Positions 7,913 through 64,000 of a stretch of 64,000 nucleotides of DNA are shown piece by piece. This DNA comes from a bacterium (GTDB lineage Bacteria; UBA10199; 2-02-FULL-44-16; JAAZCA01), in NCBI GenBank assembly GCA_963674695.2, contig CAXXGI010000003.1:512001-576000 (forward strand). Direction: 5' to 3'. Under the pieces are notes generated by a model. The model was not told the DNA's origin, did no database searches, and was given only the letters and a program-made list of their open reading frames with translations. A program made the position numbers and the translations under genes. Position 1 is the stretch's first letter, and every line of letters begins with the position of its first letter.

Positions 7913-8917
7913 CTAGGACGTTTGTTCACTCCCCATGTGGAGGTAAATCTTTCCTTCCGGTGTTGTATAGTATGGTTTTCGCTTAAAGTCATGCGTGGCT
8001 TCGATGAACCGAACGGTTCCCGTTTCGGAGCGCATGACGACCGAGTGCGTCGAAGCGCCGCCGCCGTAAAATCGCACGCCTTTGAGAAACGCTCCGTCTG
8101 TGACGCCGGTGGCGGCGAACATCACGTTTCCGGCGGCGAGATCCTCCAGACCGTAGATGCGTTCCAGGTCTTCAATGCCCATGTGGCGGGCGCGTTCTTT
8201 TTCCTGTTCGTTGCGCCACGCGAGCATCCCCTGCATGTCGCCGCCCAGGCAGCGCAGCGCGGCAGCTGCGAGCACGCCCTCGGGCGCGCCTCCGCTGCCC
8301 AGCAGGATGTCGACGCCGGAGTCGGGCTGGCAGGCGGCGATCGCGGCGGAGACATCGCCGTCGTCGATGAGGCGTATGCGTGCGCCGGCCTGGCGCACCT
8401 CCTTGATAAGATTCTCATGCCGCGGCCGGTTGAGGATGATGGCGGTGAGTTCGCGTACTTCGCATCGCTTGGCCTCCGCGACCGCGACGAGGTTCTGTGT
8501 CGGCGTTCGCTTCAGGTCGATCACGCCGCGGCAGTCGGGGCCGACGGCGATCTTCCACATATAGGTATCGGGTGCATGCAGGAAGTTCCCCCGGTCGGCC
8601 ATGGCGATCACCGCCAGCGAATTCTCCTTGCCGGTCGCACAGACGTTTGTCCCCTCGAGCGGGTCGAGCGCGATATCAATCTCGGGGCCTGTGCCATCGC
8701 CGACCTCCTCGCCGATATAGAGCATGGGCGCTTCGTCGCGTTCCCCCTCACCGATGACCACGCGCCCCTGAATGGACATCGAGCCCAGCGAGGTGCGCAT
8801 GGCATCCACGGCGGCCTGATCGGCGGCATCGGAGAGGCCCCGACCCATCAGGCGTGCTGCGGCAAGGGCAGCGGCCTCCGTGACTCGAACCATCTCCAGC
8901 GCCATATTCTTTTCCAT
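7913..8917 (-). CDS. glpX: Class II fructose-1,6-bisphosphatase
   Basis: VRVTEAAALAA, VVIGEGERDEAPMLYIGEEVG, DPLEGT. Start at MEKNMALE. Confidence 0.95.
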   Translation of the reverse strand: MEKNMALEMVRVTEAAALAAARLMGRGLSDAADQAAVDAMRTSLGSMSIQGRVVIGEGERDEAPMLYIGEEVGDGTGPEIDIALDPLEGTNVCATGKENSLAVIAMADRGNFLHAPDTYMWKIAVGPDCRGVIDLKRTPTQNLVAVAEAKRCEVRELTAIILNRPRHENLIKEVRQAGARIRLIDDGDVSAAIAACQPDSGVDILLGSGGAPEGVLAAAALRCLGGDMQGMLAWRNEQEKERARHMGIEDLERIYGLEDLAAGNVMFAATGVTDGAFLKGVRFYGGGASTHSVVMRSETGTVRFIEATHDFKRKPYYTTPEGKIYLHMGSEQTS

Positions 8918-8927
8918 GGTGCCCTCC

Positions 8928-9815
8928 CTATCTTCCGTGTGCTTCAAGCATCACTTCATCCGCGAGGTATGAACTGCGTACAAAGGGGCCAGCAAAAACG
9001 AATTTGAGCCCGTGCTTTAAACCCATCTGTTCATATTCACGAAAGTGATCCGGCTCGATGTAGCGCGCAACGGCAAGTGCTTTGCGCGATGGCTGCAGGT
9101 ATTGGCCGATGGTGACACAGCTGCATCCAGCGCAGGCAAGATCGCGCAATGCTTCATCGATCTCTTCGTCGGTCTCGCCAAGGCCGACCATGAGCCCCGA
9201 CTTGATGACGGCGTTCGGGAGCTGCTCGCGTGCGCGAGAAAGGACGGCGAGCGAGCAGTCGTAGTCGGCCCGGTTGCGCACCGTCGGGGTGAGGCGTCGT
9301 ACGGTCTCGAGGTTGTGGTTGAAGACATCCGGCTGCGCGGCACAGAGGGCGTCGATATCCCCTCCCCTCCCCTGGAAGTCGGGAGTGAGGATCTCAATCG
9401 TTGTCTTTGGGCAGGCGGCGCGGACGGCGCTGATGGTCTGTGCCAGGTGTGCGGCTCCTCCGTCTGACAGATCGTCGCGCGTCACCGAGGTGATCACGGC
9501 GTGTTTGAGCCCCATCTCTTGGACCTGTTCGGCTACGTGCCGGGGCTCATTCGCGTCGAGCGGGGCCGGATCGCCGTGGGCGACATCGCAGAAGCCGCAG
9601 TGGCGTGTGCAGTTCGGGCCCATGAGGAGGAAGGTGGCGGTGCCGCGTTCGAAACATTCCTGCAGATTGGGGCAGCGGGCCTGCTCGCAGACGGTGTGCA
9701 GCGCCTTTCCCCGCAGGGCAGCCCGCACGCGATGGGCGCTCGATCCGCTACAGCGGCGTTTGCGGAGCCAGGGGGGCAGACGGCCCGATTCAGGATGGAG
9801 CGGCTTTCCAGGCAT
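8928..9815 (-). CDS. lipA: Lipoyl synthase
   Basis: CEQARCPNLQEC, CTRHCGFC and RSSY motifs. The ORF-track N-terminal extension runs through a REP and is rejected. Confidence 0.95.
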   Translation of the reverse strand: MPGKPLHPESGRLPPWLRKRRCSGSSAHRVRAALRGKALHTVCEQARCPNLQECFERGTATFLLMGPNCTRHCGFCDVAHGDPAPLDANEPRHVAEQVQEMGLKHAVITSVTRDDLSDGGAAHLAQTISAVRAACPKTTIEILTPDFQGRGGDIDALCAAQPDVFNHNLETVRRLTPTVRNRADYDCSLAVLSRAREQLPNAVIKSGLMVGLGETDEEIDEALRDLACAGCSCVTIGQYLQPSRKALAVARYIEPDHFREYEQMGLKHGLKFVFAGPFVRSSYLADEVMLEAHGR

Positions 9816-9917
9816 GGAAAGCCCCATAGCATAGATTGGAGATGCGTCAAAGTGGTCAATATACGACCAGTACGAACGGCCTTCGTAGTGGTGGTGAAAT
9901 AACAAATCCACAAATAG

Positions 9918-10015
9918 TGTCATTCCCGCCCCCGATTCAATCATTCGAGGGCAGGCTCCAGCGGGAATCTCGCTTGAAACAATCAATCGAGATCCCCGCG
10001 TTCGCGGGGATGACA
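9918..10015. repeat. REP-like inverted pair, expanded-loop variant
   Basis: Near-identical to 7253-7350. Confidence 0.9.
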
Positions 10016-10030
10016 AAAACCGGGGTGCGT

Positions 10031-13000
10031 CTATCGTCCTCTCCGCTTCCTCCGTCTGACGCGGACCAGGACCATGGTGCCGCTGGGGAGCAGGAAGGCC
10101 AGGAGCATGAAGCCGAGGGCCGTCCAGGGCACGGGGTTTGGCTCGGTCGCGGCCAGGGCGCAGCCGCCGCCGCCCGCGGGCGACATCGGTTTGCCGCTCA
10201 GGAAGGTCACGCCAGTCGTAACCGGTGCGGGCGCCTCCTGTCCGGCGACGCCATAGACATCCTGGACGATCATGAAGCGATAGCTGTCCTTCTCCTCCCA
10301 GGATGTGGTCGACAGGTTGAGGAAGATGTTGGGGTTGCCCCGGCCGAAGCGCTCGGTGAGCATCTCGAGTTCCTCGAAGACGATCTCCTTATCATGCTGC
10401 TGGTTCTCGATGTACATATCCTCTTCGCTGGCATACCCCAGATCGCGATAGTCGGTCGCACCCTCGGTCCCCTGCGAAGATCCCACGCGGGGCAGTTCTG
10501 GGATGTTCAGCATCCACATCACCGATCCGGCGCCTGCTGGTCCTTCGCTCGTTGCATCGTCTGGAGCACTAGTCATGTCGATGCTCGGGAGTTCGCGGAA
10601 GGTCGGGCGTTCGACCGCCGAACCCATCACCACCTGGATGTCGGGCGGCACGGCGATGATCTTTACGGAGGCACGGTCGTTCACGATCATCTCGTTCGGA
10701 TTGATGCGTGTGAGTTTTTCCACCGGCATCTGTTCGACGCCGCCGAAGGAACTCAAATCCGGCATGATGGTGAGCGCCTTGATCAGATCGCCCTTGGCCG
10801 TATCCGGCGCAGGGGCCTCGGTGGGCACGATGATCTCCGGCTGACGGACGATGGCAATCCGATTGGACTCCGGCGTGGTCAGCTGCAGGCCTGTCATCTG
10901 GACGAGCGCTCCGGGTCGGATGTTGCCATTGCGATCCGGGTCGGCCGATCCGGAGAGCGACAGCGAGAGTTCCTGACGCGGAACGGTTGGTGCGGAGGCG
11001 TCTTTGATGACGCAGGCACAGGCTATCGTGTCGCCTTCGCCGATGAAGAGGTCATAGCCGACAACGCCCGTGATCTCCTGGACGCGTCGGTTGAGCTCCT
11101 TGAGCTCCTCGTCCGTGCTGTTCGACGAGCAGACGCAGCGGCCCGGATCGGCCTCGGCACGGCCAGCGTTCTGGCAGCGGCAGTTGGAGCAGAACTCGTT
11201 ATCCTCGCAGTCATTGTCTTGTTCGCACTGCTCGCCTTCCTCCAGCACGGCGTTGCCGCAGACGATGTTCGAAGGTTCACAGGCACAGGCGTCGGTGCAG
11301 ATCTCGCCTTCGCGGCAGCCCTCGCCCGCGTCGCAGATCTCACCCACATCCCAGGTGCCATTTCCGCAGACCGGTTCTGGTGTGACACAATGGCAGCTCT
11401 CGTCGCAGTTTTGGAGGTCGGAACAAGTGTTGAATCCGGGCTCACCGCACTGTTCGCCCTCTTCGATGAAGCCGTTGCCGCAGCCCGGCGTGATACAGCG
11501 GCAATCTCGGCAGTCCTGCCCGGAAGCGCATTCGAGGCCCAGTTCGCCGCACTGTTCGCCTTCATCGGCCGAGCCATCGCCGCAGCTCGGCGTGTGGCAC
11601 TGGCAGGTGTCTTCATTACAGATCTGTCCATCGCCGCAGGTGAGAGCGCCATCGCGGCACTGCTCGCCGGGATCGGCGACGTCGTTTCCGCAAACAGGCG
11701 TCAGACACTGGCATCCACTACAGTAGTCGCCATCCGGACAGTCGGCGTTGGATTCGCACACTTCATCCCCTTCGACGACTCCGTCTCCACATGCGGCCAA
11801 TCGGCAATGACACCCGTCGCAGACCTGATTGAGGGCAAAGGTGCAATCGGTGTCCTGTTCGCACTCCTCGTGGGATTCTTCAATCTTTCCGTTTCCACAA
11901 GCGGCATCGGTGTATTCGCATGCACACGATGCATTGCAGGCAAAGCCCGTGGCGCAGTTGCCGAACTCGGTGCCGTCGCATTCTTCACCCTTTTCAACAA
12001 CATTGTTTCCGCAGACGACATCGCAGTCGTTGTCGTTTGTGGAATCGCAGCCCTCTGCGCAACAGCCGTCGTCATTCGCGCAGGCGGTGATCAATTCATT
12101 CAGGCACTCGCCGTTTGCGGTACGACAGGTATCGATTGTGCAGGCATTATCATCAGTGCAGTCCTTCTCGACTTCATTGTCACAGGTTCCCCCAGCGGTG
12201 CACGTGCCGTTGACGAGACAGAGGTTTGTGCTGTTGTTGGTGCATTCAACGCCCTCGTTCGCAAGTGCAAATCCACAGCCATTTTCCAGCGTGCAGATGG
12301 AGACATGGCAGACTTCAGCGGCATCCGGGCAGACGTTTCCGGTTCCGCCCACACACTCGCCGGCATCATTACAGGTGGTGCCATCGGTGCAGGGGTTGCT
12401 GTCATCGCAGCTCTGGCCGATGCTTGCGGGATCCGGTTGTGGTTTGCAGATTCCGTCGGCTTCGTCACAGAGTGAAACAGTGCACTCACCGGTATCAGCG
12501 CAGCTCTTCGATTTGCCTGCGCATTCACCGTTGCTGCAGATATCATTTTCGGTGCAGTGATTTCCATCGTTGCAGAAAGCGGTGTTATTCGTATAGTAGC
12601 AACCGTTGTGTGCGAGATCGCAGGCATCAGCTGTGCAGACGTTTCCGTCGTCACAATTGTGAGCGGTTGAGATGCATTGGCCAGATGCATTGCATGCTCC
12701 GTCCATGCACGGATCGTCGAGCGCACAGTCAGTGCCTTGCTCCTTGGGCTCCGCCGCCGGACAGCTTCCATCGGTGGAACAGGTGACCGCCAGGGTGCAC
12801 TCTGTCTCACCTGCACATACCTCTCCGGGCACACACTCGCACCGGTTCTCATTGAGCCGGCAGGATCCCTCGCTACACTGATCGACCGTGCAGGCCAGTT
12901 CATCGAGATCGCACGGGAGCGTATTGTTGGTGACGGTGCAACCCGATGCGGGATTGCAGGAATCGGTCGTGCAGATATTGCCGTCATCGCATTCAACAGG

Positions 13001-58770: not shown

Positions 58771-58795
58771 ACGAGTCACGAGTTACGAGTCACGG
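58771..58795. repeat. Heptamer repeat spanning the mutS stop codon
   Basis: ACGAGTC ACGAGTT ACGAGTC ACGG; supplies ..VTRNS-stop. Confidence 0.8.
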
Positions 58796-61400
58796 TTTTC
58801 TTCAACTCCTGCAAGATGGTAAGGGCTTCCAGCGGTGTGGTGGTGTTGGGATCGATGTCGTGGAGGCGGGTGACGACCTCATGCGAGGGCGATTGCGTGA
58901 AGAGTTGAAATTGTGCGGGTTGCGCGGGCGCGGCGTGATCCGTCGCACGATGTCCGCCGATGCGTGGACTGCCGACCTCGTCGAACTCCCCCGCCTCGAG
59001 ATTGGTGAGCACCTCGGTGGCGCGACCGATGACGCCCTCGGGGAGCCCCGCGAGTTTGGCGACCTGGATGCCATAGCTGTGCGAGGTGGCTCCAGGGACG
59101 AGCCGGCGCAGGAAGACGACCTCGCCGTTCCACTCCTTCACCGCGATGTGCATGTTGCGCAGCCCGGTCTTTTGCAGGGCGAGCTCGGTGAGTTCGTGAT
59201 AGTGCGTGGCAAAGAGCGTGCGCGCCCGGACGCGGTCGTGCAGATCCTCGGCTACGGCCCAGGCGATGGCCAATCCGTCGAAGGTGGAGGTGCCTCGCCC
59301 GATCTCGTCGATGATGACGAGGCTTTTGGGCCCCGCTTCGCGCAGAATCGTGGCGGCCTCCGACATCTCCACCATAAAGGTCGACTGACCCTGGGCCAGC
59401 GCATCGGAAGCGCCCACGCGCGTGAAGATGCGGTCAGCCACGCCGATGCGCGCACTCGTTGCGGGGACGAATGAACCGATCTGCGCCATCAGGACGATGA
59501 GCGCGCTCTGTCGCATGACGGTCGATTTCCCCGCCATATTGGGGCCGGTGATGAGCAGCAGCCGGTTGTCGGTATCGTCGAGCAGCACATCGTTTGGCAC
59601 GAAGCGCACGCTGGGATCCATGCGTTCGACGATCGGGTGACGCCCTCCCTGGATATCGATCGCCGAACCGTCATCGACGGTCGGGCGACAATAGTCGTAT
59701 TCGGCGGCGATGCGCGCGAGCCCCGTCAGCGCATCGATGGCGGCGATCGCCTCAGCCGTGGCCTGGAGGCGCGGCGTCGCCTCAGCGATGCGCTCGCGCA
59801 GCGTGACGAAGAGGTCGTATTCGAGCGCGCGCGCCTTTTCCTGTGCGCCCAGGATCGTCTCTTCGCGTTCCTTGAGCTGCGGGGTGATATAGCGTTCCGC
59901 GTTCGCGAGCGTCTGTTTGCGGATGTAGTCGGCGGGGACCTTGTCGCGATGGGCGTTGGTCACCTCGAGGTAGTAGCCGAAGACCTTGTTATAGCGAATT
60001 TTCAGCGAGCTGATCCCGGTCCGTTTGCGCTCTGCCGCCTCGATCGAGGCGATGTAATCCTTTCCGTGATCGATGATGTGGCGCAGCTCATCGAGCCCTT
60101 CATCGATGCCGTTGCGGATGATTCCCCCTTCGCGGATGGTCAGCGGCGGCTCGTCGGCGATGGTCTGCGCGATGGCCTCGATCAGATCATCGGCGGGGTC
60201 GATGCATCCGGCATGCTGGGCGATGAGGCCGGCGCTATCGGCGAGCTGCTCGCGCACGAGGCGCGCGGCGGCGAGCGATTCCCGCAGGGCGAGCAGATCG
60301 CGCGCATTCGCGCTGCCCAGCGCCACGCGCGTGGTGATGCGCTCGAGGTCGTAGATCTCGCGCAGCGTCTCGGGCAGCGCGCGCAGCAGCCCCGGTTCGG
60401 AGAGGATCGAGGCAACCGCCTCCAGGCGTTCCTCGATCGCATCGACGTCGATGAGCGGATAGAGGATCCAGCGCTTGAGCAGACGCGATCCGAGCGCCGT
60501 GGTGGTTCGATCCAACGCGTGCAGGAGCGACCCCTCGCGCTCCCCCGCGGGCATGGTGCGGGTGAGTTCCAGGTTGCGCTTGGTCGCCTCGTCCAGGCGC
60601 ATGGCGTACGCGGCCCTGCCGCTCGAGATGGCGGTGATGTGCCGCAGGTTCCCCCGCTGCGTCTGCTGCAGATAGGAGAGCGTTCGCGCAGCGGCTTGTG
60701 CGGCGACGGGCATGCGTTCGATGAGTGCCGCCCCGCCGGTGAGCGCTTCGAGGGCATCGACGGCGGGTTCGCCATCATCGGTGCTGATGAGAACGTTCGG
60801 GAGTAGCCGCTGGATGCGCGCCATGAGCGATGGATGCTGCGCGCAGGCTTCGTTGACGAGGAGCTCACGCGGTTCGGCGCGGGCGAGCTCTTCGAGAAAT
60901 GCCTCGGGAGTATCGAAGGTATCGGCCTGAAAAAGCCCCGTGGAGATATCGGCGAGCGCCAGACCGAATTGCCCCTTCTCATCCAGGGCAATTCCCGCCA
61001 GGAAATTGTCGGCCGTGGCATCGAGACCAAGGCCATCGGCGACCACCCCCGGGGTGACCACCCGCGTGACCTCGCGTTTGACGACTCCTTTTGCCTGCCG
61101 CGGGTCCTCGACCTGATCGCAGATGGCGACCTTCTCCCCCTTTTCCAGCAGCTTGGCGATATAGGGTTCGATCGAATGATACGGAACGCCGCAGAGCGGG
61201 ATCGGGTTGGGGTCATTCTTGTTTCGAGAGGTTAAAGTGATTTCGAGATGTTTGGATGCAACTACAGCATCATCATAGAACATTTCATAGAAGTCACCGA
61301 GGCGAAAAAGGAGGATCGCATCCGGGTGCTGCGCCTTGATGCTCTGATACTGGCGCAACATCGGTGTGGGCGCATCATTATATGGTGGCTTCTTGGACAT
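58776..61400 (-). CDS. mutS: DNA mismatch repair protein MutS
   Basis: TPMLRQY, GDFYEMF, TGPNMAGKST, DEIGRGTST, FATHYHELT. Confidence 0.98.
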   Translation of the reverse strand: MSKKPPYNDAPTPMLRQYQSIKAQHPDAILLFRLGDFYEMFYDDAVVASKHLEITLTSRNKNDPNPIPLCGVPYHSIEPYIAKLLEKGEKVAICDQVEDPRQAKGVVKREVTRVVTPGVVADGLGLDATADNFLAGIALDEKGQFGLALADISTGLFQADTFDTPEAFLEELARAEPRELLVNEACAQHPSLMARIQRLLPNVLISTDDGEPAVDALEALTGGAALIERMPVAAQAAARTLSYLQQTQRGNLRHITAISSGRAAYAMRLDEATKRNLELTRTMPAGEREGSLLHALDRTTTALGSRLLKRWILYPLIDVDAIEERLEAVASILSEPGLLRALPETLREIYDLERITTRVALGSANARDLLALRESLAAARLVREQLADSAGLIAQHAGCIDPADDLIEAIAQTIADEPPLTIREGGIIRNGIDEGLDELRHIIDHGKDYIASIEAAERKRTGISSLKIRYNKVFGYYLEVTNAHRDKVPADYIRKQTLANAERYITPQLKEREETILGAQEKARALEYDLFVTLRERIAEATPRLQATAEAIAAIDALTGLARIAAEYDYCRPTVDDGSAIDIQGGRHPIVERMDPSVRFVPNDVLLDDTDNRLLLITGPNMAGKSTVMRQSALIVLMAQIGSFVPATSARIGVADRIFTRVGASDALAQGQSTFMVEMSEAATILREAGPKSLVIIDEIGRGTSTFDGLAIAWAVAEDLHDRVRARTLFATHYHELTELALQKTGLRNMHIAVKEWNGEVVFLRRLVPGATSHSYGIQVAKLAGLPEGVIGRATEVLTNLEAGEFDEVGSPRIGGHRATDHAAPAQPAQFQLFTQSPSHEVVTRLHDIDPNTTTPLEALTILQELKKTVTRNS

Positions 61401-61459
61401 GGAGCCCTTCCATACAAGGGCCGCACCGCAGAATCAAGCGTAGAGCGCATGGTGATCGT

Positions 61460-61530
61460 TGTCATCCCCGTGAAAACGGGGATCTCGATGTTCCGTATAG
61501 AACGAGATTCCCGCGTTCGCGGGAATGACA
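61460..61530. repeat. REP-like inverted pair
   Basis: Same arms as the other copies. Confidence 0.9.
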
Positions 61531-61600
61531 AAACAAGTCCTCCCCGGTAACAGGCGTTACCGAATATGTTGATATTGAAGGGGAAATCGGACAGCCGCCG

Positions 61601-61630
61601 GCAACTTTGACCTGTCGCCGAACCGATAAT
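61601..61630 (+). promoter_or_regulatory. Sigma28-like promoter of cassette copy 1
   Basis: GCAACTT-N14-ACCGATAAT. Confidence 0.6.
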
Positions 61631-61660
61631 GTCTACGAGGGGCACGTTTTGGAGGCAACT

Positions 61661-62059
61661 ATGCTGGGACTTCTCGGATGTGGATTTTTGATTGCGGGAA
61701 TCATTTGTGGGGCCGTCGTTGGCGCGACCTCGATGGGCGTTCAGATCCAGGGAGCCATAGATCAAAAGAAAGCGGCTCAGGATAATCTGGAACTTCAGCA
61801 GCAACAGGCGCAGAAGGCGGAGAACAAAGAGGACAAGTTCAACGAATATCAAGAACGCGTGGCCTCGAAGGAGACGCTCACAGCGACGATGAAGGCCAAC
61901 GCGATGATCGGGCGCATCGAGAAACAGACCGACGATGCGCGCAACGGCACGCTGAGCAATCGGCGCAAGGCGAGGAAAGAGGGGCATGGACTCGGCCACC
62001 GGCGCGTGCACACCCCTCGCCCAAGTTATGCCAATCATGGCAAACCGGCACAGGCATGA
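61661..62059 (+). CDS. Cassette gene A: Gly-rich hydrophobic N-terminus plus coiled coil
   Basis: GGAGG RBS; MLGLLGCGFLIAGIICGAVVGA; Q/K/E-rich helix; strongly similar to 63349-63747. Confidence 0.8.
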   Translation: MLGLLGCGFLIAGIICGAVVGATSMGVQIQGAIDQKKAAQDNLELQQQQAQKAENKEDKFNEYQERVASKETLTATMKANAMIGRIEKQTDDARNGTLSNRRKARKEGHGLGHRRVHTPRPSYANHGKPAQA

Positions 62060-62078
62060 TGAAGCGGAAGGAGATCCG

Positions 62079-62678
62079 ATGATCAGCGCGGGATTCATCA
62101 ATCAAAATACGGGACAGCGAACGAATCAGCAGCAGAGCAATCCCTACATGCAGGGCGGCGGCATGGCTCCCCCGCAGGCGGTCGGGCCGAGCTTTCAGCC
62201 GACCTTCGGGCCACAGTGGACCGCCCCCTCCTCTGCGCCGGGGATCAATTTCAAGGCGGAGCTGAGTGAAGCGGATGCCGCCGAGGCGATGCGCTGGGGA
62301 TTCGGGACGCAGATGGCGGGCATGGCGGTGAACACCATCATGCAGGGGTTCAACTACGGTCTCGCCGCCAAGTCGATGGAGTATCAGGCCTCGATCGCAA
62401 ACAAATACTACGACACACAGGAGACGATCGCCGGGTATCAGAAGGAGGTGGCGATCGAGCAGCTCAGCGTCCAGAAGGAAGGCATGGGGATCCAGCAGGA
62501 GATGCATGCCGCACAGATCGAACACGAGAAGGGAATGGCGCGGCTCGAAGGCAACACGCAGGCGCGGCTGAAGATGATCGAAGACCGCGGCAAGACGAAC
62601 CGGGCGAAGATCCTCACGGTGTCGAACGCCTTCGATCGCCGTGGCTGGAGCAACTACGGCATGCCGCACGCGGCATGA
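62079..62678 (+). CDS. Cassette gene B: Q/P-rich N-terminus, Gly/Ala helix, coiled coil
   Basis: AAGGAG RBS; MISAGFINQN...; paralog begins at 63766. Confidence 0.8.
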   Translation: MISAGFINQNTGQRTNQQQSNPYMQGGGMAPPQAVGPSFQPTFGPQWTAPSSAPGINFKAELSEADAAEAMRWGFGTQMAGMAVNTIMQGFNYGLAAKSMEYQASIANKYYDTQETIAGYQKEVAIEQLSVQKEGMGIQQEMHAAQIEHEKGMARLEGNTQARLKMIEDRGKTNRAKILTVSNAFDRRGWSNYGMPHAA

Positions 62679-62691
62679 AGGAGCGGAACCT

Positions 62692-63195
62692 ATGAATGAG
62701 ATGATAGCGAATGATCCTCATGCAGAAATTATGTGGCAAGAGTTTGATATCATCGAACAAAATAGTGCCTCCGGAATGGGCGGCGCTTCAGCCGGGATGT
62801 TTGCCTTCGGCGCTACGGTGGCGGCCTTCCAGACCATCGGCGCGGGCGTGGCGTATCACTTTCAGAGCGAGACGCTCGACATCCAGCGCGATACCAAGAT
62901 CGCGGCATACGATCATCAGGAGCGGATGGGCGAGAAGCAGAAGAATATGCAGCTGACCACGCTCAAGGAACAGAAGAAACAGCAACAGAATGCCAAGGTG
63001 GCCAATCAGAAGTATCTGGACGCGCAGCAGAAGCTGGCGCGGGCCAAGGGCGAAAAGACGATCTCCGAGGCCGACCTCAAGGAGGCCAGGCTGACGATGA
63101 AGGCGGGCAAGACCGATGGTCGCGCCCTGGACAAACTCTTCGATCGACGTGGAAACTACCGGTATGGCAACCCCATTGCGCACGGAACCGGTTGA
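62692..63195 (+). CDS. Cassette gene C: Gly/Ala hydrophobic segment plus coiled coil
   Basis: AAGGAG RBS; GMGGASAGMFAFGATVAAFQTIGAGVAY; ends FDRRGNYRYGNP. Confidence 0.78.
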   Translation: MNEMIANDPHAEIMWQEFDIIEQNSASGMGGASAGMFAFGATVAAFQTIGAGVAYHFQSETLDIQRDTKIAAYDHQERMGEKQKNMQLTTLKEQKKQQQNAKVANQKYLDAQQKLARAKGEKTISEADLKEARLTMKAGKTDGRALDKLFDRRGNYRYGNPIAHGTG

Positions 63196-63288
63196 AATGT
63201 AATGTGATTTACTTCAGGCCTCCTCTTTGTGGTGACAGTCCTTTCTTGCAATAAAATGGACTTTAAGCACCATTTCACGCAAATCCAC

Positions 63289-63318
63289 GCAACTTCCGAC
63301 TCTCATCCAACCGATAAT
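63289..63318 (+). promoter_or_regulatory. Sigma28-like promoter of cassette copy 2
   Basis: GCAACTT-N14-ACCGATAAT. Confidence 0.6.
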
Positions 63319-63348
63319 GTCAACGAGGGGTAGAACCACGGAGGCGTT

Positions 63349-63747
63349 ATGCTCGGACTGTTGGGATGCGGATTTTTGATTGCGGGGGTTGTCTGCGGTG
63401 TCGTCTTGGGCGGTGTCAATGCGGCCATGCAGGCCAATGCCGCTGCCGATGCCAAGGATATGGCCAAAAAAGAACAGGCGCTCACCAAAGAGCGCATGAC
63501 CAACGCCGAGAATAAAGAGGACAAGTTCAACGAATACAAGGAACGCATGGCCTCGAAGGAGACGCTCCAGACGACGATGAAGGCGAATGCCCTGATCGGA
63601 CGCGTGGAGAAACAGGCCGAGGATGCGCGCAACGATACGCTGAGCAATCGGCGCAAGGCCTTGAAAGAGGGACATGGGCTGGGCCAGCGGCGCGTACAGA
63701 CCTCACGTCCGAGCTATGCCAACAACGGTCGGCCGGCACAGGCATAA
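63349..63747 (+). CDS. Cassette gene A, second copy
   Basis: 132 aa, colinear with 61661-62059. Confidence 0.82.
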   Translation: MLGLLGCGFLIAGVVCGVVLGGVNAAMQANAAADAKDMAKKEQALTKERMTNAENKEDKFNEYKERMASKETLQTTMKANALIGRVEKQAEDARNDTLSNRRKALKEGHGLGQRRVQTSRPSYANNGRPAQA

Positions 63748-63765
63748 TTTCCGAAGGGAGCTTTT

Positions 63766-64000
63766 ATGATCGGAGCGGGAAACAACTATCAGTCGACGCA
63801 GACCGCCCAACAAGGCCAGCAGACCAATCCCTATATGCAGGGCGGCGGCATGGCTCCTCCCAGTGCGATGGGGCCGAGCTTTCAGCCGACCTTCGGGCCG
63901 CAGTGGACGGCCCCCACCTCTGCCCCGGGGATCAATTTCAAGGCGGAGTTGGGTACAAAGGAATCGGCCGAGGCGATGCGCTGGGGGTTCGGGACGCAGA
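63766..64000 (+). CDS. Cassette gene B, second copy (truncated by window end)
   Basis: My translation: MIGAGNNYQSTQTAQQGQQTNPYMQGGGMAPPSAMGPSFQPTFGPQWTAP...AEAMRWGFGTQ. Confidence 0.8.
   Translation, partial: MIGAGNNYQSTQTAQQGQQTNPYMQGGGMAPPSAMGPSFQPTFGPQWTAPTSAPGINFKAELGTKESAEAMRWGFGTQ

Follow-up and report, generated by a model that had tools for sequence, protein, structure and literature searches.

A tandemly duplicated cassette of three small tail-motif proteins behind a sigma28-type promoter in a little-known bacterial phylum

At the end of a 64,000-nucleotide stretch of DNA (the window; C3:512001-576000 of the genome coded G000, which measures 3.03 Mb and is 100% complete by the tool's figure), a bacterium of the lineage UBA10199 carries a cassette of three small genes, here called A, B and C, behind a promoter of the sigma28 type. 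The cassette occupies C3:573.6-577.0 kb and includes a diverged second copy of the same unit (A', B' and C'), which crosses the end of the window and is followed by a further gene, D. The features are listed in window coordinates, those beyond position 64000 being window-equivalent positions.

58776-61400, minus strand: mutS, divergent to the cassette
61601-61630, plus strand: sigma28-type promoter of unit 1 (GCAACTT at 61601-61607, 15-base spacer, CCGATAAT at 61623-61630)
61661-62059, plus strand: gene A, 132 aa, membrane anchor predicted from residue 1, then polar helix; tail RPSYANHGKP
62079-62678, plus strand: gene B, 199 aa, starts MISAG; tail RRGWSNYGMP
62692-63195, plus strand: gene C, 167 aa, paralogue of B; tail RRGNYRYGNP
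63289-63318, plus strand: sigma28-type promoter of unit 2 (GCAACTT at 63289-63295, 15-base spacer, CCGATAAT at 63311-63318)
63349-63747, plus strand: gene A', 132 aa, 67% identical to A, residues 16-50 diverged; tail RPSYANNGRP
63766-64365, plus strand: gene B', 199 aa, cut at the window end (64000), complete in the genome
64382-65005, plus strand: gene C', 207 aa, beyond the window
65250-66029 (L040:4250-5029), plus strand: gene D, 259 aa, beyond the window, after C'

The period from A to A' is 1688 bases, the first unit consisting of the promoter, A, B and C, and both the coordinates and the content of the 1688-bp unit and its diverged second copy given in a preliminary description of this DNA hold. 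Reading past position 64000 added B' and C' to complete the second unit, and a tblastn search of the whole 3.03-Mb genome with all six cassette proteins found no additional copy, so that the units number exactly two; the cassette had been called multi-copy, which is right for this genome but not for its relatives, where a single A-B-C set is found. Identity between the copies is 67% for A/A', 82% for B/B' and 56-60% for C/C', with dS values of 0.88 (A), 0.42 (B) and 0.83 (C) and dN/dS values of 0.29, 0.28 and 0.43, respectively; the duplication is old, and both copies are under purifying selection. The divergence of A is concentrated in its centre while the ends are conserved, as had been noticed before, the identity of A and A' in 15-residue windows being 0.9, 0.3, 0.3 and 0.5, then 0.7-0.8. 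The duplication is not an assembly artefact, which the preliminary description had already thought improbable: a 1701-base Logan contig from run X1 spans L040 1483-3183 (B, C and A', into B') with 0 differences, and overlapping Logan pieces from run X3, a second sample of the same study, bridge the C-to-A' junction, again with 0 differences. Since the three Logan runs all come from one study and the best-matching run may be the source sample, this amounts to support rather than fully independent proof. Over 55 residues, A' (residues ~8-61, window 63370-63530) also has 44% identity (E 3.6e-8) with the product of the first part of an unrelated gene at C2:74342-74506. The protein encoded there has a signal-peptide-like, cleavable-looking N-terminus, and the variable segment of A' may thus have arisen as a mosaic or by gene conversion. 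The cassette is flanked by short palindromic repeats that occur in many copies (window 61400-61560, window-equivalent 65103-65263 and 66069-66200), the Logan word depth being 350-760 and 17-43 at the repeats against about 5-10 within the cassette.

In both units the promoter is made up of GCAACTT, 15 bases and CCGATAAT, and the box ends 30 bases upstream of the start codon. The promoter type recognized in the preliminary description is borne out by its conservation, as GCAACTT-N12/13-CCGATAAT, before A in 22 of 22 loci, 18 with the strict pattern and four as near-matches judged by eye; the loci read were 20 that were fetched plus two contigs from named metagenome-assembled genomes (MAGs), one of them labelled 'uncultured Myxococcales bacterium' at NCBI. 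The pattern AAC[AT]T-N12-16-CCGATAA occurs at 62 sites in the genome, nearly all just upstream of open reading frame (ORF) starts, against a chance expectation of ~2 estimated by hand from base composition, and GCAACTT-N11-14-CCGATAA has 17 exact matches in G000 versus 0 for the reversed word. Across the comparison set of 93 species genomes of the phylum (one class), the strict word is present in 91, mostly in 5-57 copies each, with 0-1 for the reversed-word control. The criterion for the FliA class, for which the -10 consensus CCGATA was taken from PMC3627812, combines a -10 box CCGATA(A/T), a spaced -35 box, enrichment upstream of genes and a FliA-family sigma factor, and each of these was found here, the best FliA/WhiG-type sigma factor (C3:8530-9399) scoring 132 bits, below the 189.6-bit cut-off. 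A sigma28-type site also lies just upstream of the ORF preceding the sigma-factor gene. As judged from these patterns, the promoter is of the FliA/sigma28 class and functionally constrained, with a FliA-like sigma factor as its putative user.

The regulon extends well beyond the cassette. Of the 62 downstream ORFs, we scanned the 40 that reach 100 aa or more; all but a few have a ribosome-binding site. No Pfam match was obtained for 22 of the 40, and flagellar and chemotaxis proteins are absent from the set. The enzymes among them comprise S8, M23, C25 and S41 peptidases, transglutaminase-like and SET-domain proteins and a BrxL-type Lon protease, and further members are thrombospondin-repeat proteins with lipoprotein-like N-termini and a thioredoxin-like protein. 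This is reminiscent of the FliA attack-phase regulon of Bdellovibrio bacteriovorus, where a sigma28-type -10 box CCGATA is reported far beyond the flagellar genes, TTAAG-N16-CCGATA being given for 92 of 140 attack-phase promoters, including those of proteases and surface proteins (PMC3627812). The set described here, about 60 promoters including those of peptidases and lipoproteins, differs in its -35 word from the one reported there (PMC3627812). The present genome, moreover, has no flagellin or rod/hook genes at all, and its putative sigma factor falls below the FliA/WhiG cut-off.

A, B and C are built on a common plan, in which a hydrophobic Gly/Ala-rich segment is followed by a polar helix of ~100 residues and a tail R-x2-[YW]-x-[YFM]-G-x-P. 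The C-terminal motifs of A, A', B and C stand far above chance expectation and are related in the way that the preliminary description had quoted them, and in all three family alignments (20 orthologues for A, 20 for C and 20-22 per family overall) the tail Gly (G127 in A) is the one column without variation. Beyond the C-terminal tail, these alignments have nearly nothing in common. In hhalign comparisons, B and C align from the hydrophobic segment through the tail (probability 98.8%, E 1.1e-16, 132 columns), A and B align over 81 columns (80.8%, E 1.3e-5), and A and C match at 95.8% in an alignment restricted to the 17-column tail. Such profile similarity marks A, B and C as three ancient paralogues of one family. 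Counted from where the most hydrophobic 19-residue window ends, the motif Gly follows after 98±8 residues in A (n=19), 98±9 in B (n=20) and 100±9 in C (n=20), for total lengths across orthologues of 128±9, 187±17 and 159±20 aa, respectively. Because the stalks are equal and the totals are not, the three proteins differ chiefly in the region ahead of the hydrophobic segment, where A has nothing and B and C have a Q/N/P/G-rich stretch.

The hydrophobic segment had been ascribed to all of the proteins, and this needs to be qualified: the best 19-residue Kyte-Doolittle mean is of membrane grade in A (2.43, range 1.97-2.82) but weak in B (0.92) and C (1.23), A alone of the three thus having a predicted membrane-grade anchor. 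No signal peptide was found in B, C or D, as had been stated before for B and C. AlphaFold, run on the B alignment, gave disorder over residues 1-63, a weak hydrophobic helix at 64-90 and a long helix at 99-184, with a low overall pLDDT of 54. The description of the stalks as coiled coils could not be upheld, even though this long helix is predicted in B, since in a test on column-averaged hydropathy shuffled sequences equalled the observed power at 3.4-3.7 residues in 359 (A), 169 (B) and 436 (C) of 1000 cases; lacking significant heptad periodicity, the stalks may be called long polar helices but not coiled coils. Many A orthologues have [IL][LM][GAS]C near the start. A lipoprotein reading of A was considered and rejected by the usual lipobox rules, there being 6-11 residues before the Cys, no positive n-region and a long hydrophobic stretch after it. 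A start of the form M-[ILM]-[SGA]-[AG]-G is found in 12 of 20 B orthologues and in about 8 of 20 C orthologues.

Scans of A, B, C and D against Pfam, NCBIfam and PADLOC gave nothing above noise; in PADLOC there was nothing beyond a match to the coiled-coil protein JetC (E 0.008), and a defence-system reading is unsupported. Among the PHROG families, A matches phrog_2867 ('virion structural protein') at E 4.1e-5, a family reached by only one of the 20 A orthologues, two of the 20 match phrog_1403 (Rz-like spanin; best E 8.2e-5), and B and C reach Rz-like spanin families at E 0.035-0.1. Across the 20 A orthologues, five different and unrelated PHROGs are each matched by one or two members, a spread that points to common composition rather than kinship. 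A profile of the B family searched against all PDB sequences had its best match at E 0.17, the best matches falling at E 0.17-0.57 with phiX174 H (4jpn_A) at E 0.57 and 13.3 bits, and in the ESM Atlas the nearest clusters of B are phage hypotheticals at 0.82-0.84, below the tool's 0.9 level, D being without a usable match there. A tblastn search of 50,697 phage records with A and B found no match, and of 40 pattern hits in a scan of viral contigs none is a relative. Outside its own genome, B has seven relatives among 5.8 billion clustered proteins, all of them unnamed or 'hypothetical'. In agreement with the preliminary description, the proteins therefore match no characterised family in the Pfam, NCBIfam, PADLOC and PDB searches, but these sequence and profile searches gave no significant match to the translocators, phiX174 H and pore-forming toxins with which that description had compared them (PDB profile E 0.17-0.57), and the genome has no PF04888 match. 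We regard the A-B-C family as undescribed and lineage-restricted, a judgement made from family libraries and source names rather than from a literature search.

Within the 22 genomes of its own order, the family is detected by a B/C profile in 20, including 17 of 17 high-quality ones, and a broader B/C profile finds it in 29 of the 93 phylum genomes at E <= 0.01, the matches lying in the own order, in families f11, f12, f13 and f19 and, marginally, once in f21. Four B/C-type matches per genome are seen in G000 alone among the order genomes; elsewhere there are at most two, equivalent to one cassette. The gene order mutS / A B C D / LapA-domain gene, HIT, SppA, rpsA recurs, with mutS present in 14 of the 20 fetched loci and D in 18; of the remaining two, one locus breaks off with its contig, and G010 has its D match on C91 but B and C on C14. 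To judge from this synteny, the cassette is a vertically inherited chromosomal module and not a mobile element. In one relative (G007, L027:6256-9279), a 1007-aa protein of no obvious family is inserted between C and D. In G000 itself, a GC-rich hairpin recognized by eye, and absent from the terminator-scan list, lies 3' of C', and downstream of D the minus strand carries a LapA-domain gene, HIT, an IHF-like gene, SppA and rpsA.

Conservation is higher in D (39-60% identity) than in A, B and C. A D gene occurs in 79 of the 93 phylum genomes (59 of the 63 of high quality), and single genomes have as many as five paralogues, clustered in some lineages. Its profile finds 147 cluster representatives among 1.84 billion, some of them spurious Cna_B proteins, and the named matches are all 'hypothetical protein' entries from MAGs; giant proteins matched by the profile (P0133, P0134 and others) were rejected as Cna_B repeat proteins with a short motif in common. 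A Pfam scan of D gave no match. Two helical lobes are seen in its structural model (pLDDT 77.6), and the conserved C-terminus is disordered and closes with an invariant basic sequence (...RRS.KG.RG). In 5 of 13 D loci from other orders (L042, L044, L046, L047 and L048), a sigma28-type word precedes small co-directional ORFs, and four of these loci have ORFs with an aromatic-Gly tail, meaning Y or W close to a C-terminal G (...YWTG in L042, ...HWYG in L044, ...QWGGSGDAGA in L046 and ...VYPGA in L047), the tail pattern as applied in other orders being loose. The ORF of L048 is A-like, with an anchor from residue 1 and the tail RRGYDLPQPSRDI, in which no Gly follows the aromatic residue. The chain of small ORFs abuts a D paralogue in L044, L046 and L047; in L048 a 460-aa gene stands between the small ORF and D, and in L042 the gap is about 0.8 kb. 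Within a 12-sequence set, two of these proteins score against the A profile, and one against the C profile, with E values between 5e-5 and 6e-7. The adjacency of D paralogues to sigma28-driven, tail-motif ORFs in other orders is the main reason for considering D the likely partner of the tails. Genes of 446-460 aa between small tail-motif genes and D were noted at L048:5966-7348 (G065) and at L043:6934-8274 and 8904-10244 (G086), and the 460-aa gene of L048 may, by eye, encode a radical-SAM/B12-type enzyme.

The presence of a type III secretion core, which had been proposed as a point to check, was established. A flagellar-type export cluster at C3:~9.9-20.4 kb encodes FliG-, FliH-, FliI-, FliJ/YscO-, FliK-, FliM- and FliN-like proteins together with FliO/P/Q/R ORFs assigned by position and sequence reading. 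FlhA is present too, the secretion genes as a whole being placed at C3:~8.5-25 kb and C1:140901-143066, and the sigma-factor gene at C3:8530-9399 adjoins the cluster. The 100%-complete genome has no flagellin N/C domains, no rod/hook C-terminal domain and no needle protein, and a genome-wide search for PF04888 (SseC-type translocator) was empty at E <= 0.1. Next after the cluster come the two best LcrH/SycD-like TPR genes, at C3:22.4-24.9 kb (66 bits, below the 104.8-bit cut-off), and the cassette is about 550 kb from both the secretion cluster and these chaperone-like genes. Because FHIPEP is near-universal in the phylum (91 of 93 genomes), co-occurrence with type III secretion is uninformative, and the secretion core is context rather than evidence about A, B and C; the translocon idea is kept alive by it because the exported parts of the machine are not accounted for. 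The C-terminal motif had further been proposed as an export or assembly signal. A loose form of it is found in 9 of 16371 ORFs, five of them cassette proteins and four chance-like, against ~6 expected, which does not bear out a general export signal, and in this genome the motif is confined to the cassette paralogues, a result that the preliminary description had itself named as telling against its proposal.

Taken together, these data lead us to propose, tentatively and at somewhat less than even chances, that A, B and C form a membrane-anchored spacer bundle that presents their tails to a partner, probably D. A would be inserted in the cell's own inner membrane through its N-terminal anchor, with B and C beside it, held through Gly/Ala-rich segments that appear too weak for autonomous insertion. 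The three equal stalks would act as a spacer holding three tails roughly 15 nm from the membrane, a figure that follows from 100 residues of 0.15 nm each, and the tails would be docking sites for one common partner, most likely the soluble protein D. Stalks and tails would be cytoplasmic, a placement suggested by B, C and D having no signal peptide and by the segments of B and C being too weak for translocation. The module would belong to a phylum-wide sigma28 'late' programme, and the second copy would be a diverged variant of the same assembly.

Several observations weigh against this spacer bundle. The correlation of stalk length between A, B and C across genomes is weak (r 0.15-0.49), and none of the stalks has a significant heptad pattern, side-by-side bundling being suggested by their equal length. 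The flanks of the A anchor are charge-poor (K+R 0.0 before and 0.6 after, D+E 1.1 after, that is mildly acidic), and such nearly neutral flanks do not appear to settle the topology; a stalk in the periplasm would be in keeping with the variable part of A', which is similar to the mature N-terminus of a signal-peptide protein. As regards D, the top Foldseek rows are almost all EF-hand proteins, weakly, with E at best 0.05, and VIA-align to EF-hand pairs gives a Z of at most 4.6 over residues 5-84 and 89-162, likewise weak. D also has a sigma70-like promoter of its own (TTGACA-17-TAAAAT, 11/12 matches, L040 4195-4223) and stands behind the hairpin, so that co-expression with A-B-C is not required, and it is far commoner than B/C-profile matches (79 versus 29 of 93 genomes).

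A different possibility, to which we give a limited chance, is that the type III machine exports B and C, and perhaps A, for insertion in a target membrane as a translocon or pilot; signals of this kind, held equally doubtful, would be the N-terminal MI(S/G)AG together with disorder for export, and the tail for assembly or chaperone binding. The genome has the export core (FlhA and FliG/H/I/J/M/N/O/P/Q/R) without flagellin, rod/hook, needle or SseC-type translocator, and the cassette has its promoter type in common with probable secreted or host-directed proteins (S8, M23, C25 and S41 peptidases, SET). The hydrophobic segments of B and C are sub-threshold, as has been described for exported translocators, the first 63 residues of B are predicted to be disordered, and nine of about 2330 approximate genes, where 0.45 would be expected, begin with M[IL][SGA][AG]G, three of the nine having the same promoter. 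The proteins also resemble SctE/SctB (YopB/YopD, IpaB/IpaC, CopB/CopD) in their moderately hydrophobic segment, long helices, absence of a Sec signal and paired paralogous genes, in a genome with a type III core. On the other hand, no translocator, tip or needle family is significantly similar to A, B and C in sequence or profile (for the SseC/YopB-, YopD-, IpaB- and IpaC-type families, no Pfam hit with A, B, C or A' and none in the PDB profile search), and known hydrophobic translocators are much larger; each of the cassette proteins has a single hydrophobic segment and no hairpin. The anchor of A, strongly hydrophobic (2.43), begins at residue 1, which argues for insertion in the membrane of the producing cell, where A is a predicted membrane protein; no stretch is left ahead of the anchor for an N-terminal export signal. 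The cassette is apart from the secretion genes and the two LcrH-like TPR genes, no class II TPR chaperone lies beside it, and one relative, G015 (96% complete), has A-B-C-D without a FHIPEP match, which in a single genome could be an assembly gap. A related and still less probable idea is that the missing substrates, or the outer parts, of the flagellum-derived type III machine, which has lost flagellin, rod and hook, are A, B and C, their tails being bound in the cytoplasm by D as a chaperone or sorter; it is no better than a long shot that MI(S/G)AG would then be an export tag, the C-terminal tail an assembly or recognition signal and the second copy an alternative exported structure.

It is rather unlikely, in our estimate, that A, with B and C, is instead a periplasm-spanning tether, anchored in the inner membrane with a periplasmic stalk like an i-spanin or TolA, and we give similarly poor prospects to the corollary that its tail binds peptidoglycan or an outer-membrane partner. 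A does have the i-spanin plan of an N-terminal anchor followed by helices, the stretch after its anchor is mildly acidic (D+E 1.1 versus K+R 0.6), the variable part of A' has a counterpart (44% identity, 55 residues) in a protein whose signal peptide looks cleavable, and a constant stalk length suits a spacer that bridges a compartment of fixed width; Rz-like spanin PHROGs are matched by 2 of 20 A orthologues (best E 8.2e-5) and weakly by B and C (E 0.035-0.1). But the five PHROG families matched are unrelated to one another, a signal peptide is absent from B and C and their segments are weak, from which the translocation of long polar C-terminal parts is hard to envisage, neighbouring D has no signal peptide either, and the cassette includes no small lipoprotein partner, holin or endolysin. 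Very improbable is a domesticated phage module, in which internal virion, ejection or DNA-pilot proteins now serve the cell. Its weak leads are the match of A to phrog_2867 (E 4.1e-5), the phage hypotheticals nearest to B in the ESM Atlas (0.82-0.84) and phiX174 H at E 0.57, and set against them are the empty tblastn search of A and B in 50,697 phage records, the lack of any relative among viral contigs and of phage genes near the cassette, the single A orthologue in 20 that matches phrog_2867, and the fixed chromosomal position with order-wide vertical conservation. In broader terms, i-spanins (Rz), T7 gp14-like proteins and phiX174 H are like the cassette proteins in having an N-terminal anchor and then a long Q/K/E/A-rich helix, with weak PHROG/Pfam/PDB hits, and unlike them in that the cassette has no phage context, o-spanin, holin or endolysin and no consistent family match; the ORF lists of the cassette and 20 related loci have no lysis genes. 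The probability remaining after the spacer bundle and the three rivals (translocon, tether and phage module) goes to something else.

For the tripartite alpha-pore-forming toxins of the ClyA-fold, HBL-type family (Hbl/Nhe/Ahl/Smh), there was no Pfam/NCBIfam hit at E <= 1-10 and none in the PDB profile search. Other known systems provide partial parallels. PilN/PilO and GspL/GspM are bitopic alignment proteins, small paralogous pairs with a short conserved N-terminal docking word, a hydrophobic segment and a helix, and they form hetero-oligomers; A-B-C differ from them in having a short tail in place of a globular C-terminal domain, a comparison of plan in which homology was not sought. Lysobacter enzymogenes is reported to be a non-flagellated predator that retains its flagellar type III system, and it thus has, like the present genome, a flagellar-type export core without a flagellum (PMC7688988). 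A difference is that the core is near-universal here (FHIPEP in 91 of 93 phylum genomes) and is accompanied by a large sigma28-type regulon.

The novelty claimed lies at the level of the family and the module. If the proposed assembly is real, the protein family would be new, and so would its short C-terminal recognition motif; both belong to an uncultured, little-known phylum whose members keep a secretion core of flagellar type and a large sigma28-type regulon with no flagellum genes. This combination raises the question of the role and cargo of a flagellum-derived export machine once the flagellum has been lost, A, B and C being among the few small, highly conserved, sigma28-driven genes able to be parts or clients of such a machine. 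Even on the modest reading of a membrane spacer that offers its tails to D, the fixed 100-residue stalk and the invariant Gly of the tail offer clear experimental handles.

The N-terminal word of B also occurs beyond the cassette. The nine genes that begin with M[IL][SGA][AG]G, counted over about 2330 approximate genes against the 0.45 expected from positional residue frequencies by a gene call that missed B itself, encode otherwise unrelated proteins without a Pfam match; the carriers are C1:236689, C1:61763(-), C2:222294(-), C3:180885, C3:716750(-), C3:995453(-), B, B' and C'. Three also have a sigma28-type promoter in the ORF scan, and two large ones have outer-membrane beta-barrel-like ends (...LSLKF and ...VGYKY). 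An N-terminal tag defined by sequence and common to unrelated proteins would be unusual.

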